Shown here: piece after piece, positions 13,452 to 28,277 of the stretch
Layout of the letters: each line of letters starts with the position of its first letter
Position numbering within the stretch: position 1 is the first letter of the stretch
Virus record (IMG/VR): IMGVR_UViG_3300005663_000171
Location: 1-28,277 of that record
DNA: 28,277 nt
Direction: 5' to 3' (one strand)
DNA from: a virus
Lineage: Duplodnaviria > Caudoviricetes
Translations under genes and position numbers: made by a program
Notes under the pieces: generated by a model
The model's input: the letters and a program-made list of their open reading frames with translations, nothing else
Databases searched by the model: none
What the model was told of the DNA's origin: nothing

Positions 13452-13758
13452 GAAGATCAAGACCACCGCAGCCGACCGTAAGTGGGCCAAGCTCATCAAA
13501 GAGCGGGACCATTGGGCGTGTCAGCGATGTGGAACTGTCTACCCAAAGAAGTCCCGAGGGTTACACGCCGCTCACATATTCTCCCGTCGATTCAAGCGCA
13601 CTCGCCACGACCCTATCAACGGGGTGGCTCTTTGCTTCGGCTGTCATGCACACTTCCACAGTAACCCGATAGAGTTTATGGCGTGGGCAGAGGAGCACCT
13701 GGGCGAGCGCACATTCAAAGAGCTGATGGGTAAAGCACGCAAACTTGCGGTCAACTGA
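13444..13758 (+). CDS. NinG/Rap-like HNH endonuclease
   Basis: IKERD..CQRCG...AAHIFSRR...TR.D..N..ALC..CH..FH.NP. Confidence 0.8.
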   Translation: MPKKIKTTAADRKWAKLIKERDHWACQRCGTVYPKKSRGLHAAHIFSRRFKRTRHDPINGVALCFGCHAHFHSNPIEFMAWAEEHLGERTFKELMGKARKLAVN

Positions 13759-13829
13759 GCCCCACGCCGGATTGCTTATGGGGACCCCGCTGCCTCGACC
13801 CAGCGGCCCATCGGTTCCGGCGTGCGGCT
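13758..13829 (+). other. Long imperfect intergenic hairpin (about 72 nt)
   Basis: Nested stems CACGCCGGA/TCCGGCGTG, ATGGG/CCCAT and CCGCTG/CAGCGG. Confidence 0.65.
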
Positions 13830-13840
13830 GAGAGGATCGC

Positions 13841-14101
13841 ATGGAAAACAACTTAGTACTTCAAGGACGCAAGACAGGAAACAAGCGCAAGCACATGAGC
13901 GTGCGCCAGCGTCTCAAGCACACCATAAGGGTAGCGGACAGTCTCAATCAGCTACTGGGTGCAGCCAACAGGAAGATGGTGGAGCAGCATGCAGAGATCC
14001 AGACAGCTCGCTACGCAGCCAAGTGGTATCGAGAGCGCTGGATATTCACGATGATTGCCCTCATCATAGTGTTCGGGGTGGTGGCTCTTGTCCTGGTCTA
14101 A
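13841..14101 (+). CDS. Hypothetical coiled-coil protein with C-terminal TM helix
   Basis: GAGGA RBS; hydrophobic C-terminus. Confidence 0.6.
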   Translation: MENNLVLQGRKTGNKRKHMSVRQRLKHTIRVADSLNQLLGAANRKMVEQHAEIQTARYAAKWYRERWIFTMIALIIVFGVVALVLV

Positions 14102-14577: not shown

Positions 14578-15127
14578 CGATATTGACACTTGGGATACAG
14601 GGGTGTCCGTAGGGACAGACCTGAAAGAAAACCTTGACACCGTACACATGAGCCTTGGGGTGCTAGGTCTGCATCTGTGCCCGATCAGGAAGGCCGGCGG
14701 CCAGGACCCAGAGAACCAAAGCCAGACCGTCACAGCATTAGCTAAGGCGATCGGCATTGATCGCTCGTGGCTCTCCAATGCAATATCAAATGCCCAATTT
14801 TATGCTGGGCACTACGAAGACGTCCCTCCACAGGCCACCATCGGACAGCTCAACCGAGGCCGCAAGCTGACGGGGTGGACAACCAAGCTCGACAAACCCC
14901 CAACCAAAACGCAAATCAAGAAAGCCATGAAGTACTTGGAGGGCGAGGTAGACGAGCCGGCCAAGGTGTCACCTACCGCCATAGCGTACGTGCGTGGCGC
15001 CAGGGGCAAGCTAGTCAGGGCGCTCGAGCACGATGACCCGCTAACACCCCAAGAAGTGACTAGCGTAGAGCAGGCTAAGGATGAGCTCGACATAGTAGAC
15101 AGCCACTACGAAAGCGAGGACGAATGA
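14555..15127 (+). CDS. Hypothetical HTH-containing protein
   Basis: TVTALAKAIGIDRSWLSNA HTH-like segment. Confidence 0.55.
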   Translation: MEVTIKTSDIDTWDTGVSVGTDLKENLDTVHMSLGVLGLHLCPIRKAGGQDPENQSQTVTALAKAIGIDRSWLSNAISNAQFYAGHYEDVPPQATIGQLNRGRKLTGWTTKLDKPPTKTQIKKAMKYLEGEVDEPAKVSPTAIAYVRGARGKLVRALEHDDPLTPQEVTSVEQAKDELDIVDSHYESEDE

Positions 15128-15225
15128 TGGGTGAAATGAGTCTGTGGATGCGCCTTAGAGGATGGGTTGCACGTTGCGTCTACCCCGAAATCTTCGAGTG
15201 GTACTACGAGAGCGAGGACGAATGA
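15105..15225 (+). repeat. 23-bp direct repeat pair (15105-15127 and 15203-15225)
   Basis: ACTACGA[A/G]AGCGAGGACGAATGA, one mismatch. Confidence 0.9.
15124..15225 (+). CDS. 33-aa mini-gene MMGEMSLWMRLRGWVARCVYPEIFEWYYESEDE
   Basis: GAGG RBS; ATGA start/stop coupling at both ends; below the ORF-track length cutoff. Confidence 0.55.
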   Translation: MMGEMSLWMRLRGWVARCVYPEIFEWYYESEDE

Positions 15226-15974
15226 AGGCTGAGAGAGTTCATCCTTTAGTAGAGCCACCAAAGAAAGGCGACAAGGAACCCGTCACCGACCTGGATCGCC
15301 AGATCTGGTGGTTTATGGGGCTGCCTTCCACGAACCACTGGCACATGACGAAGATGTGTATGCGGATCGCCAGGTGGACACCGACGCACTGGACGATGCT
15401 CGAGTCCCCGCCTCTCAAAGTCAACAGGCTTCGGCGGGAGATGATAAAGTTCTTTATGAAGAAGTCGAAGAACCCGAAAGACACACTGGTAATGCTGGAC
15501 ATTGATCACCTGCACCCCAACACTGTAGTAAAGGATCTGGTGGGCGACGGCCAGTTCCCGATACACTGTGCTCTGACCTTCAAGCGAGCCCCCACCCTGC
15601 CGGTTCCTATGGCGATGGACTACATCAACGGATGGGAATCGAGCCCTGCCATGTGCTCGCAGTTCACACCTGGCGAGGTCTTGAAGTGCGATCGAGGGGG
15701 CACAGGAGCAATAGCCATTCAGCGCCAGGTATTCGACGCGATCATAGCGCTAGGCTACCCCATTGAAAAGATGTTTATCTACAAAGACGGAGAGGACTGC
15801 GACAAGTGGTTCGCTCGACTGTGCACTCAGGCCGGGTTCAAGCAATATGTCAACACGGCAATCGAAAGCCCTCACTTCTCCGACGTGCCGGAATATATCA
15901 ACTCTGAAATGTGGGACAAGTGGGCAAAAGAGAAAGGACACGGAGGGATAGTCAGAGATGCTGAACATACATGA
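15222..15974 (+). CDS. GT-A fold glycosyltransferase (GT2-like)
   Basis: R...IK.F...LVMLDID (DxD); GTGAIAI.R.VF; GED..F...AGFK.YVNT.I...H. Confidence 0.75.
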   Translation: MKAERVHPLVEPPKKGDKEPVTDLDRQIWWFMGLPSTNHWHMTKMCMRIARWTPTHWTMLESPPLKVNRLRREMIKFFMKKSKNPKDTLVMLDIDHLHPNTVVKDLVGDGQFPIHCALTFKRAPTLPVPMAMDYINGWESSPAMCSQFTPGEVLKCDRGGTGAIAIQRQVFDAIIALGYPIEKMFIYKDGEDCDKWFARLCTQAGFKQYVNTAIESPHFSDVPEYINSEMWDKWAKEKGHGGIVRDAEHT

Positions 15975-24021: not shown

Positions 24022-24051
24022 GTAGCGACGAGTCGAGATACGTGCTACCAT
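24022..24051 (+). promoter_or_regulatory. Putative phage late promoter C (GTAGCG-N18-TACCAT, TG-extended)
   Basis: Intergenic, upstream of the tail-fibre locus; shared motif. Confidence 0.55.
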
Positions 24052-24052
24052 G

Positions 24053-24077
24053 GAGCCCTCAGACGAGGGCTCTTTTT
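24053..24077 (+). terminator. Intrinsic terminator GAGCCCTC-AGAC-GAGGGCTC-TTTTT
   Basis: Perfect 8-bp stem, 4-nt loop and T5 tract. Confidence 0.75.
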
Positions 24078-24079
24078 CT

Positions 24080-24457
24080 ATGGCGGAAGAAAAACTAATC
24101 ATCACGGAAGAGGATGCAAACAACGCTGTTGGCTTCCGCATTGATGACATAAAGGAGTTCGACTATGAGCTGCGTCAGAGCGGCGGAGGTACGACGCAGC
24201 TTCTCGTGCTAACGCTGGCCGATCGCACGGTGACGTTCAGTGGCGCCGAGGCTACGACGGTGTACGCCACGATCAAAGACTCGTTCAGCGAGGGCGGTGC
24301 AGATGCCTCGCCAGCGCCAATCGAGACCACACAAGCGAGCATAGATGTAGCGACGCAGTTGATAGCTGAACTGCAGAAGGCTCTATCAGCGGTGGCGGGT
24401 GGCGTGTTCATCCGGGTAGGGACTGACGGCACACCAATAGAGATGGACGCAAGCTAG
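24080..24457 (+). CDS. Stand-alone paralog of the tail-fibre N-terminal domain (125 aa)
   Basis: About 70% identical (88/125 by hand) to the N-terminus of the next gene. Confidence 0.75.
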   Translation: MAEEKLIITEEDANNAVGFRIDDIKEFDYELRQSGGGTTQLLVLTLADRTVTFSGAEATTVYATIKDSFSEGGADASPAPIETTQASIDVATQLIAELQKALSAVAGGVFIRVGTDGTPIEMDAS

Positions 24458-24710
24458 TGGCAGAAGAGAAACTAATCATCGTCGAGGAGGACGCCACGAA
24501 TGCAGTAGGTTTTCGTATTGACGACATCAATGATCTAACCTACGAGGAGCGTCAAAGCGGAGGGCTAGGTACGATCCAGCTACTAAACTTAGAGCTGGGG
24601 AGCGGCAAGAGGGTATCATTCAGAGGGGCCGAAGCAGTAACGGTCTACGCCACGATCAAAGACTCGTTCAGCGAGGGCGGTGCAGATGCCTCGCCAGCGC
24701 CAATCGAGAC
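24263..24710 (+). repeat. 65-bp identical direct repeat (24263-24327 and 24646-24710)
   Basis: TACGCCACGATCAAAGACTCGTTCAGCGAGGGCGGTGCAGATGCCTCGCCAGCGCCAATCGAGAC in both paralogs. Confidence 0.95.
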
Positions 24711-25773
24711 AACCCAGGCTAGCATACTGACACAGATGGAGCTGATAGATGACATGCGTGACGCTCTCTCGAGCGTGGCGGGTGGTGTATTCATGCGGAT
24801 CGGGACGGACGGAGTACCGCTGAAAGTAACGATAACCGGAATAGATCACAACATTCTCGACGGCGACGTACATGGCGACAGCGTGGCCGATGCTGTTACT
24901 CAGGGTTCGCTTGTCGTCGGAAACGCAACCCCGAAATGGGATGAACTTATTTTAGGCGCAGATAATGATGTCCTGGCCAGCGACGGATCGGATCTTGCTT
25001 ATGAAACGCTCGCTTCGCTTTTGAAAGCGACCCTATTGACCTCCGATGGGGATCTGCTTGTCAGGACTGGAGGAAACGTAACCCGATTGGCGGCGGGTGC
25101 GGCCGACGAGCTTTTAGCAATCTCCGGCGGAGATCCGACCTGGGTAAATAAGATCAGCCGTAAACAATTTATAACTAACTATCCGACCTATTTCAAAGAT
25201 TGGCGTGATTTAGTTGGTTTTACAGAGGCGCACTCAGGTACAGGTGCATTTACGGCCGGGTTTATGTTCGGAACGATCAAAACAGGAACAACACTAAACT
25301 CGGAAGGAATTATTCATTCAACCGATCACTTTTGGGTACTTACTGGCACGACAGCATTTATCACACAGTTGTTGACTAGAATAAATATTGACACTGTTGT
25401 TACTAATTCACTGATATGGATTGGCATGTTCGATAATCAAACTGCACCGACTGCAACCGAGGAGCATATAGGTTGGAAGATATTGAATGGCGATTTATTT
25501 GCTAGCTGTGGAAATGGATCAGATGGAAACTTAGAAGATACCGGAGTAGACATTGTGGCGTTTGGTACATATGACCTATATATAAAGAACACACCCAATA
25601 AGGTTGAATATTATGTCAGTAATGTTCTAAAGGCTACCTTCGAAACCAACCTACCTACATCGGGATTTGAGCTTCATATTACTTACTATGTGAAAACGAC
25701 GGATACGGTTAGTAAGCAGTTCAAAACATTTCCGTTCTGGCTGACACACGGACCTAATGTAGACTTTGACTAG
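24457..25773 (+). CDS. Tail fibre / receptor-binding protein
   Basis: GDL(L/I)V.......RL..G....L...G..P.W fibre repeats; AT-rich lectin-like C-terminal domain. Confidence 0.7.
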   Translation: MAEEKLIIVEEDATNAVGFRIDDINDLTYEERQSGGLGTIQLLNLELGSGKRVSFRGAEAVTVYATIKDSFSEGGADASPAPIETTQASILTQMELIDDMRDALSSVAGGVFMRIGTDGVPLKVTITGIDHNILDGDVHGDSVADAVTQGSLVVGNATPKWDELILGADNDVLASDGSDLAYETLASLLKATLLTSDGDLLVRTGGNVTRLAAGAADELLAISGGDPTWVNKISRKQFITNYPTYFKDWRDLVGFTEAHSGTGAFTAGFMFGTIKTGTTLNSEGIIHSTDHFWVLTGTTAFITQLLTRINIDTVVTNSLIWIGMFDNQTAPTATEEHIGWKILNGDLFASCGNGSDGNLEDTGVDIVAFGTYDLYIKNTPNKVEYYVSNVLKATFETNLPTSGFELHITYYVKTTDTVSKQFKTFPFWLTHGPNVDFD

Positions 25774-26110: not shown

Positions 26111-26530
26111 ATGGCCAAGCAGCTAACGAGAAAACAGCAAAGACTATGCGAGATCATCGTCAGTCACCCCGAGTTCAGCCACGAGCAGGCTGCAGTTGAG
26201 GCCGGCTATCAGCTATCGGGCGCACGGGGCCGGGCATCCTACAACCTCCGCCAGCCCCATGTCCGGCGTTATATCGACGAGCTGCGCAAGATCCTACTGC
26301 CGGCACTCAACAGAGAGAACGTGGCATTCAGGCTGCAGGAGATTATCGAGATCCCACTTGAAGCCCACAACTTCAACCCCAACGCCAGGGTCAGTGCTGC
26401 TCGAGAGGTCGGGCGCATGTACGGATGGGGCAAGGAAGAAGTACACCACACACACGAGCTCGAAGGACTCGAAGACTTCACTGTTGTCTTTCACACAGAG
26501 GACGAGGTAGACGACGGTGAAAGCTCTTGA
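26111..26530 (+). CDS. terS: Terminase small subunit
   Basis: LT.KQ......AA..AGY...A...L..P.V...I.EL; directly upstream of terL. Confidence 0.85.
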   Translation: MAKQLTRKQQRLCEIIVSHPEFSHEQAAVEAGYQLSGARGRASYNLRQPHVRRYIDELRKILLPALNRENVAFRLQEIIEIPLEAHNFNPNARVSAAREVGRMYGWGKEEVHHTHELEGLEDFTVVFHTEDEVDDGESS

Positions 26531-27929
26531 CTTTCTCAAGCTAGCGAAGTTCACTCCGAAGCAGCTCATAGCATGGTGGAAGATCTATCCCGGCAGCGAG
26601 GGGAAGGGTAAGCGCTTCCTGCTATACGGCGGCGCCAGGGGAGGCGGCAAGTCACGCTTCCTACGATGGGCACTGCTCGGGCTGCTGATCTACTGGGGCA
26701 AGATCAATAAGCTCAAGGGCGTGAAGGTGGTGCTGTTCGCAGAAGACTACCCAACGCTGACCGACAGACAGATCGGCCCAATGCAAGACGAGTTCCCCAA
26801 GTGGCTGGGAGAATTGAAGCGCACCCAGGCAGACGGGCTCGGCTTCCACCTGCGACCCGAGTGGGGCGGCGGACACCTGCTACTGCGAAACATGGGTGAG
26901 GACATCAGCAAGTACAAGTCTGCAGAGTTCGCAGCTATAGCGATCGATGAGCTCACCTTCTGGGATTACAGCGAGTTCGAGATACTGCGTGGATCCTTGC
27001 GATGGGCTGGCATAGGACAGACTATCTTCCTGGCAGCCACCAACCCTGGAGGCAAGGGCCATCTGTGGGTGAAGGACCTGTGGATAGATAAGAAGCTGAC
27101 CAGGCACCCCGAGCTCGAGCCCATCTTTCAAACGTTCGACTTCGTGCAGGCTCTACCGACAGACAACCCCTACCTCGAGCAGACCTACTGGGATGACCTG
27201 GCTACACTATCCGAGCAGCTCAAGAGGGCGTGGCTGTACGGAGACTGGACTGTGTTTGAGGGCCAGGTCTTCACCGAATGGAACCCACTCATTCACACCT
27301 GCGATCCGTTCAACATCCCCGAGGACTGGCCGAAGTGGAGAGGCATCGACCCCGGCTACACGGCGCCGGCATGCACGCTATGGTTTGCAATGAACCCCGA
27401 GATGGGCAGGATCTATGTCTATCGAGAGGCATACGGGCCAGGACGCAGCGACGAGGCCATGGCCAAGGTCATAGCTGAGTGGAGCAGGGGCGAGACCTAC
27501 CAAATGAGCTACGCAGATGGGTCTCTATGGGTGGCATACAAGACTCAGCAAGCAGGCTACACCAGTGGGTACGATGTCTTTATGAGTCAGAAGCCACCTA
27601 TCCTTATGGAGCCTGGCAACAAACAGCGGATCAATGGCAAGCGCAAGGTACATGACGTGCTCGGCAAGCTCAAGGATGGCGGGCCAGGCGTCGTGTTCTT
27701 CAAGACCTGTGTCAACCTGATCCGCACGCTGCCGGCGCTGCCCTACTCCAAGAAGGCGGGCAAACTCGAGGACGTGGACACTGACGCAGAGGATCACGCC
27801 TATGACGCATTCAGGTACGGACTGACGAGACTAGCGCCCGAGAGCAGAAGGGGAGATAATGATAAAGCCGACCCAGACACAGCGAAGTGGGTGGCACAGC
27901 AAGAGCGACTAGCGGCAGCATTTGGATGA
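26517..27929 (+). CDS. terL: Terminase large subunit
   Basis: YGGARGGGKS Walker A; IAIDELT Walker B; ATNPGG.GH.WVK; DNPYL; GID.G; EDHAYDAFRY. Confidence 0.95.
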   Translation: MKALDFLKLAKFTPKQLIAWWKIYPGSEGKGKRFLLYGGARGGGKSRFLRWALLGLLIYWGKINKLKGVKVVLFAEDYPTLTDRQIGPMQDEFPKWLGELKRTQADGLGFHLRPEWGGGHLLLRNMGEDISKYKSAEFAAIAIDELTFWDYSEFEILRGSLRWAGIGQTIFLAATNPGGKGHLWVKDLWIDKKLTRHPELEPIFQTFDFVQALPTDNPYLEQTYWDDLATLSEQLKRAWLYGDWTVFEGQVFTEWNPLIHTCDPFNIPEDWPKWRGIDPGYTAPACTLWFAMNPEMGRIYVYREAYGPGRSDEAMAKVIAEWSRGETYQMSYADGSLWVAYKTQQAGYTSGYDVFMSQKPPILMEPGNKQRINGKRKVHDVLGKLKDGGPGVVFFKTCVNLIRTLPALPYSKKAGKLEDVDTDAEDHAYDAFRYGLTRLAPESRRGDNDKADPDTAKWVAQQERLAAAFG

Positions 27930-27950
27930 GCAGGTGTTTCGAGAGAAGGG

Positions 27951-27982
27951 CTGAACGACTGAACGACTGAACGAGAGAACGA
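27951..27982 (+). repeat. 8-bp tandem repeat (CTGAACGA)x3 plus GAGAACGA
   Basis: Read directly from the sequence, immediately before the AAGGAG RBS. Confidence 0.85.
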
Positions 27983-27995
27983 AAGGAGATCCACC

Positions 27996-28208
27996 ATGCA
28001 CACCACGATTACGTACTGCTACACCGACGGCAAGGGCAACGAGCAAGTGAACTATGTTTCTAACGAGCGGGGCGGAGGTCAGGTTGGTTACGACATTGAC
28101 GAGTTCACCGCCCGAGTCTGGATCAACAACGAGAACGGCAAAGAGACTACGGTGTTTCCGCTTAGCCGACTCGTGTTCATCCGGGCAGTAGTGGGCACAG
28201 GCGAGTAA
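27996..28208 (+). CDS. Hypothetical 70-aa beta-rich protein inside the inverted repeat
   Basis: Strong AAAGGAG RBS, ATG...TAA. Confidence 0.7.
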   Translation: MHTTITYCYTDGKGNEQVNYVSNERGGGQVGYDIDEFTARVWINNENGKETTVFPLSRLVFIRAVVGTGE

Positions 28209-28277
28209 CGAGAAGGTTCAGCCCTTCTCTCGGAGCACTCGGATGAGATGGTGGATCAGGCACATACTGTGGGCATG

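Follow-up and report, generated by a model that had tools for sequence, protein, structure and literature searches.

A phage gene enclosed by complementary arms forms a portable cassette at unrelated genomic sites

What separates the large terminase gene from its downstream neighbour in this phage genome, and do the complementary arms that enclose the intervening gene work in RNA or in DNA? The window analysed here (28,277 nucleotides) is the whole phage contig, whose end falls shortly past terL; the stretch runs on, identical, into a complete 45-kb record (G001, stretch L002). A first-pass annotation had described a gene looped out by a long stem directly after terL, and the elements it named are present: a perfect 17-bp inverted repeat, an extension of 6-7 pairs that uses G-U, a triple-repeat spacer, a strong ribosome-binding site and a 70-aa ORF inside the stem, a flanking direct repeat with a spacing of 317, and a competing hairpin (GAGAAGG/CCTTCTC, 28210-28229). 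We find that this insert is a portable cassette, in which one gene and its complementary arms occur at unrelated sites and are absent from a relative. The features of the locus are as follows.

26517..27929, plus strand: terL, large terminase gene (PHROG 2, E 6e-34)
27918..27930, plus strand: left copy of a 13-nt repeat, the 3' end of terL including its stop codon; single in the empty allele
27926..27970, plus strand: mini-ORF of 14 codons, starting at an ATGA overlap with the terL stop and spanning the whole 5' arm
27933..27956, plus strand: 5' arm of the long stem, from helix search and sequence comparison
27944-27956, plus strand: inner 13 nt of the 5' arm, the core common to sites, from stem comparison
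27951..27981, plus strand: GAAY-repeat leader, (CTGAACGA)x3 and then a fourth GAAC
27982-27988, plus strand: Shine-Dalgarno sequence of the cargo gene, AAAGGAG, in the loop, read from the sequence
27996..28208, plus strand: cargo ORF, 70 aa, of a new family of small acidic beta-barrel proteins
28210..28229, plus strand: alternative local hairpin of 7 bp, its loop starting UUCA, mutually exclusive with the long stem
28216..28239, plus strand: 3' arm of the long stem, including GGAG (28232-28235) 7 nt ahead of the next start codon
28235..28247, plus strand: right copy of the 13-nt repeat, its first 5 nt forming the outermost stem pairs
28243..28277, plus strand: start of a conserved 28-aa ORF that continues in L002 (5727-5813)

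The two arms form an uninterrupted helix of 24 bp (27933-27956/28216-28239; 21 Watson-Crick and 3 G-U pairs), in which the perfect repeat (27940-27956/28216-28232) is extended by seven pairs, four of them Watson-Crick and three G-U. A chance origin is ruled out by 60 dinucleotide shuffles of the window, whose longest helices reached 12-17 bp; the runner-up helix elsewhere in the window measures 14 bp. Because the folding energy of the entire region is ordinary (z -1.4), the signal is the helix and not the overall fold. An assembly artefact is ruled out too, because the complete 45-kb record, the diverged relative L086 and contigs from a second study (run X4) all show the same arrangement. Four other long-range helices of 18-21 bp were seen in 537 kb around relatives of terL (L036 2956-3185, L005 3033-3229, L027 4792-5328 and L037 900-1846); those of L036 and L005 enclose loops of 160-190 nt and lie upstream of terL.

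The insert comprises 317 bases, and its GC content (0.549, versus 0.53-0.60 in neighbouring windows) is not unlike that of the phage. Its 5' arm begins 3 nt after the terL stop codon. The mini-ORF, which is presumably translated, carries a frame through this arm that is also present in L086. The three CTGAACGA copies occupy 27951-27974, the first being the inner end of the 5' arm, and the leader is complementary to the GTTC that opens the 3' arm. The copies of the flanking repeat lie 317 apart and match at 13 of 16 positions, a level that 2% of random pairs attain.

That the sequence is an inserted cassette, as the first-pass annotation supposed, is borne out by L003, whose terL is 81% identical: it holds one copy of the 13-nt repeat and no 317-bp insert, so that this single empty allele (n = 1, from a relative and not a sister genome) sits exactly at the predicted repeat. 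In L003 a 34-aa ORF starts in an ATGA overlap with the terL stop; over 28 residues it is 71% identical to the ORF beginning at 28243 in the window. Set beside the arrangement in the window, this indicates that the insert splits a stop/start overlap, an arrangement described as tightly translation-coupled (PMC10666635).

The identity of the next gene differs from what had been proposed. The ATG at 28248, first taken as its start, lies in the wrong frame and opens only 18 aa (15 aa in the empty allele), and the supposed packaging gene is replaced by the conserved 28-aa peptide starting at 28243. In the empty allele this ORF shares bases with the terL stop; in the filled allele it runs into the start of the next large gene, and its GGAG, 7 nt upstream, lies within the 3' arm. 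The 610-aa gene that follows is a putative portal gene by position only; a Pfam search of it returned no name. The target-site pattern was found in 64 stretches, among them the filled and the empty site (L135 and L137). In run X5 (record 12; L002 5386-5752) the terL-portal interval has yet another allele, the third, with 492 other letters, and L003 also has about 380 extra nt with a 97-aa ORF ahead of the portal-position gene; this interval is an insertion hot spot.

Flanks were examined for four of the 31 family proteins (window, L086, L087 and L153). L086 represents the same site as the window in a close phage, L087 (72%) carries the cassette between portal-like and MuF-like genes, and L153 (62%) carries it among small unknown genes of a complete phage (G002). 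The enclosing stem is retained at all three distinct sites with flanks (window/L086, L087 and L153), and the duplex energy between the DNA before and after the ORF was equalled by 2/1496, 2/1494 and 0/232 control positions. L087 and G002 match in blastn only over the 265-nt core from arm to arm (L087 831-1095, 72%), G001 and G002 gave no match, and G001, G002 and L087 were otherwise unmatched among the stretches compared. This unit has therefore moved between unrelated phages. Its size is about 265-340 bp, with one copy per complete genome in both complete genomes.

A further copy was seen in run X5 (record 13; L002 5451-5593), where a close homologue is preceded by a single CTGAACGA repeat and a one-base variant of the 5' arm; only the 5' side, with 30 flanking letters, is visible, and the upstream letters are unrelated, so this is probably a fourth site. 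Immediately past the cassette in L087, a 54-aa ORF lies between the copies of a perfect 16-nt direct repeat (1127-1142 and 1291-1306) that contains a Shine-Dalgarno sequence, a stop and a start; this ORF is likely another small insert.

The stop of the upstream gene lies 3 nt before the 5' arm in the window and inside the arm in L087, and in L153 the upstream gene reads through the arm and overlaps the cargo start. The cargo stop precedes the 3' arm by 4-9 nt, and this arm contains the next gene's Shine-Dalgarno sequence in the window or its start codon in L153; in L087 the next gene has its own Shine-Dalgarno sequence outside the stem. No sigma-70-like and no terminator-like sites were found at the three sites, with a sigma-70 model that may not fit the host. 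ARAGORN found no tRNA or tmRNA genes in the four loci, and Rfam returned no rRNA or other family, its one match (E 2.6) being due to chance.

Comparison among sites, with stem pairs numbered from the gene outward, revealed that the first 13 pairs are common to them. Between the window and L153 the stem covaries, four of these inner pairs being changed on both sides in a compensatory manner, and L087 and L153 are identical over them except for one C-G to U-G change. The sequences of pairs 14-24 are unrelated between sites, yet 11, 9 and 10 of the 11 pair; the outer stem is unrelated on the 3' side in all three pairs of sites and on the 5' side in two of three. Conservation therefore resides at the inner, gene-side end, and the termini are not conserved. 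Because synonymous sites between cassette sites are near saturation (pS 0.73-0.97; pN 0.16-0.31), these comparisons indicate that the stem and the cargo protein are both under selection. Between the window and L086, the non-coding part of the cassette differs at 1/100 nt, versus 72/600 flanking third positions (p = 1.5e-4).

The three leaders, 47, 22 and 29 nt long, contain 4, 3 and 5 GAAY motifs, versus a background of 0.005-0.016 per nt in the loci, and at all three sites the repeats are complementary to the GUUC that opens the 3' arm. Also at all three sites, part of the 5' arm is copied in the few bases that separate the cargo stop from the 3' arm, which lets the 3' arm fold locally; the resulting hairpin is present at each, although each instance is marginal alone (control fractions 0.06, 0.04 and 0.07). 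Its loop starts UUCR, which we take to fit the YUNR U-turn of RNA recognition loops.

When the 5' arm was blocked in silico, predicted opening of the downstream start rose only modestly, from 0.18 to 0.34 and from 0.08 to 0.36, at two of the three sites, whereas in L087 this start became slightly more closed (0.44 to 0.33). For the window, these predictions preferred another alternative to the long stem over the local hairpin. Within the ORF, none of 34 predicted pairs showed two-sided change across four sequences, and thus no conserved RNA structure was detected there. Kink-turn, hammerhead and hairpin-ribozyme cores, compared by eye with remembered motifs, did not fit.

Successive protein searches with the cargo gave 4 matches, then 21 (with four long spurious ones removed) and then 18; 31 proteins were aligned. 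The rejected proteins (P0019, P0020, P0022 and P0025) are long and repetitive, with short spurious matches, and a GTDB match (L156) spanned 21 residues only and was not recovered by the profile. The family was found in none of 5 and none of 49 further viral records (mostly fragments) and in no annotated phages, and a search of viral contigs with P0032 gave no match. No convincing Pfam, PHROG or PDB-sequence family was identified, and Atlas feature matches were all under 0.9. The distant member P0009 has an N-terminal extension reading RMNERMN, and so reads the end of the ORF upstream in L153; since read-through of the GAAY-repeat leader yields RMNERMN, P0009 may have the same leader.

AlphaFold produced a six-strand all-beta model (pLDDT 91 and 94), whose best structural match (Z 5.5) is an unrelated protein. 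Likeness to SH3/Sm-like barrels (Hfq, LSm/Gemin, WYL and Rof) is weak and generic (Z 3-4.5; Hfq Z 4.0). Foldseek returned nothing at E 0.001 against the PDB and one match against viral models, an uncharacterised 68-aa phage protein (E 5e-4, TM 0.77), and the model also resembles numerous uncharacterised phage proteins of small size. The aligned proteins form a new family with a small beta-barrel fold.

Between the window (27996-28208) and L086 (2501-2713), the cargo ORF has 7 non-synonymous and 1 synonymous codon changes, versus 23 and 68 in 600 codons of the flanks (Fisher p = 9e-4). In this one pair, such a pattern suggests either recent transfer with diversifying selection or constrained synonymous sites, and the excess of amino-acid changes hints at a host-facing role.

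How, then, do the arms act? We favour, tentatively and just short of calling it probable, a reading in which they pair in the operon mRNA as a ribosome-gated stem processed by RNase III. The evidence pointing to RNA comprises conservation on the gene side, an outer stem that varies but still pairs, the excess of G-U over A-C on the coding strand (6 versus 2), the lack of a detected promoter, and the position of the neighbours' translation signals on the arms. Considered jointly, the RNA-level readings are reasonably probable.

In the proposed sequence of events, the cassette, presumed promoterless, would be carried on the host operon transcript, and ribosomes leaving the upstream gene would enter the 5' arm and open the long stem. 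The 3' arm would then fold into the local hairpin, leaving the transcript intact and freeing the start of the next gene. Without such ribosomes the stem would close, nucleated by pairing of GAAY with the GUUC loop, and the closed helix of 15-24 bp would be cut by host RNase III. Cutting would free the cargo as a separate, end-paired mRNA, like a released rRNA intervening sequence (IVS). In this scheme the cassette would need no enzyme of its own and would likely spread through rare recombination between short matching sequences.

Several observations temper this ribosome-gated reading. The wobble bias is not significant (p = 0.14), and single-stranded DNA hairpins tolerate G-T too. Covariation does not separate RNA from DNA, because the arms of DNA inverted repeats also change together. 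RNase III recognises mostly shape, so that strict sequence conservation at the inner end needs a further cause. Cutting the late mRNA between terL and the next genes could also be harmful. The in-silico blocking of the 5' arm bore the gating out at two of the three sites only, and modestly, and the Shine-Dalgarno sequence of the next gene in L087 stands clear of the stem.

A bolder version of the ribosome-gated reading, which we consider unlikely as a whole, would make the cassette an mRNA counterpart of the rRNA IVS: a minimal, enzyme-free mobile unit with two-state RNA ends that excises itself as a stem-closed, possibly circular, mRNA. Such a unit would land at any gene junction of a phage operon and preserve translational coupling across the insert, its spread aided by the cargo protein or by the element's own 5' end.

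The principal alternative, possible though doubtful, is a non-autonomous DNA element moved in trans, whether a mobile insertion cassette (MIC) or MITE with a passenger gene, or a substrate for a site-specific recombinase or for one acting on single-stranded DNA hairpins, with the arms as enzyme-binding sites and the direct repeat as a crossover core or duplicated target. Sharp ends mark the unit, as the arm-to-arm match between L087 and G002 illustrates, its 13 strictly conserved base pairs would suit a binding site, and the 13-nt flanking repeat is single in the empty allele. L087 is likewise flanked by a repeat (13/16, 1% of controls); this one, however, lies off the stem by 10-20 nt whereas that of the window overlaps the arm, and L153 has none, its best match being equalled by 36% of controls. 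Transposons keep conserved bases at their outer ends, the reverse of the present pattern, in which inner ends are conserved and outer ends differ per site.

An enzyme could be supplied by the host, and G002 encodes a tyrosine integrase; no transposase, recombinase, integrase or reverse transcriptase was matched among the G001 proteins scanned, which covered part of the small ORFs. The integrase gene of G002 itself contains a 16-bp perfect inverted repeat (29183-29480), within the shuffle range. The single copy in each of the two complete genomes also speaks against a DNA element, as does the search for the same arms around other genes. The first-pass annotation had suggested looking for alternative cargo in this stem. 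Arm patterns, found in 3, 2 and 21 stretches of viral contigs, revealed no such arms around a different cargo: pairing extended beyond the pattern in the window's phage and L153 alone, and L082 and L083 lack a family ORF. The stem travels with one protein family.

The cassette resembles MICs and MITEs, as they are described in PMC6542083, in having a passenger gene within inverted repeats, no transposase inside and a flanking repeat at two of three sites. It is unlike them in its unconserved outer ends, apparently non-uniform duplication (13 nt in the window, off the stem at L087, none at L153), single copy and wobble pairs in the arms; only the inner 13 bp are shared, and the lack of conserved termini counts against this class. 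In integron attC sites, the L box and stem lie inside the R box. The cassette shares with attC cassettes and phage CALINs (PMC9892861) complementary AAC...GTT motifs, hairpin formation and a small phage cargo gene. Its AAC/GTT, unlike theirs, sits at the inner, gene-side end with 13 or more conserved pairs outside; nothing pairs inside it (G-G, A-A, unpaired), there is no array, and the empty-site junction falls at the stem base, more than 18 nt from GTT. With the crossover motif at the wrong end, an attC cassette is ruled out.

Less plausible still is a self-regulating RNA-protein module, in which the cargo, as a putative Sm/SH3-like RNA-binding protein, would bind its own GAAY repeats or inner stem and so set its own translation or that of the next gene. 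The weak likeness of the beta-barrel to Hfq, LSm/Gemin, WYL and Rof folds (Z 3.5-4.2) is consistent with this idea, as are the enrichment of GAAY in the leaders relative to the loci and the residues W42, R58, Y32 and R63, which are invariant or nearly so in the family alignment. Stem type also tracks protein type, the window and the X5 copy sharing one and L087 and L153 the other, although common descent would also explain this. Against the module, purine-rich leaders are ordinary open ribosome-loading tracts, and the fold searches gave nothing in the PDB above Z 5.5 or at a Foldseek E of 0.001.

The charge of the family bears on the same question: 27 of the 31 proteins are net acidic, and a general RNA binder is therefore less favoured. 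Because the family is acidic and close copies are rich in amino-acid changes, a host protein is a likelier target of the cargo than the stem is. There is precedent for Sm-like proteins with a protein target, Rof binding Rho (PMC11018626); for the cargo this parallel is a lead only.

Spread through RNA appears very unlikely; here the stem-closed RNA would be excised, might become circular and would re-enter at a target that pairs with its 5' end. The outermost five pairs in the window join the element's first bases to the duplicated target, a G-U among them has become a G-C through a single substitution in the right copy, and the window and L153 match at 9 of 10 positions just outside the core (1.7% of controls). 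L087, however, lacks the 5' outer match, and no reverse transcriptase, ribozyme or Rfam family was found. All insertion sites lie at gene ends in the sense orientation, but such sites are those at which any insert would survive selection. An invertible segment that flips the gene on or off, which the first-pass annotation had entertained, is scarcely credible despite the 17-bp perfect inverted repeat, since the cassettes in the window, L086, L087 and L153 are all co-oriented with their neighbours, contigs of five runs (which drop rare forms) hold no strand-change joint, and inversion would even out the one-sided wobble pairs.

Among known systems, the closest in build are the ORF-bearing IVSs of 23S rRNA in Coxiella and Leptospira, described as horizontally acquired elements of a few hundred nt with no known mobility enzyme and with a terminal stem of 24-28 bp whose loop contains a small ORF; in Coxiella this stem has 28 bp and RNase III cuts it in the middle (PMC4990558). 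The cassette differs from them in lying between phage protein genes at unrelated sites instead of in an rRNA helix, with no Rfam match, and its ORF has a strong Shine-Dalgarno sequence, is under purifying selection between sites and encodes an unrelated beta protein.

Like phage morons (PMC2920897), the cassette adds a single gene between two adjacent ones and occurs in phages of more than one kind; in the window's phage it separates terL from the portal-position gene, and L003 lacks it. Unlike morons, it has no detected promoter or terminator, its GC is near that of the flanks, and it carries a conserved long-range stem that does not figure in the moron description drawn on here (PMC2920897). 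The cassette is thus a moron in behaviour and an IVS in build. With the PeSL cassettes of T4-type phages (PMC2839356), it shares small conserved non-coding elements that bound swappable genes without a dedicated enzyme; those are described as direct-repeat promoter and terminator units in arrays, whereas the cassette has one inverted pair, one gene family and no detected promoter. A search of open-access literature listings returned no description of such a stem-enclosed cassette.

The entry of genes into coupled phage operons is usually explained by a promoter and terminator of their own. The cassette gene appears instead to bring a conserved enclosing stem, and with it the unit has reached three unrelated locations. 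Should the stem act in RNA, it would represent a natural way to insert a gene into a polycistronic message and would extend the IVS design from rRNA to mRNA, in about 300 bp that can be tested whole. If the arms are DNA sites, the cassette would be of more modest interest, as a new non-autonomous phage element of small size. In either case its cargo represents a new family of small phage proteins, with a hint that their amino acids change rapidly.

Other features were seen elsewhere in the window and in the complete record. A 135-aa ORF (24050-24457) repeats, in diverged form (73-79% DNA identity), the N-terminal part of its neighbour, a 438-aa ORF (24457-25773). An intergenic hairpin at 13746-13841 has 26-nt arms, 81% complementary and 44 nt apart, and a 47-nt direct repeat (15088-15134 / 15186-15232, 77%) extends from the end of one gene to the start of the next. 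Upstream of its capsid genes, G001 encodes a protein that has a ddrB-like ParB domain and is at least 3210 aa long (L177 10-9639).
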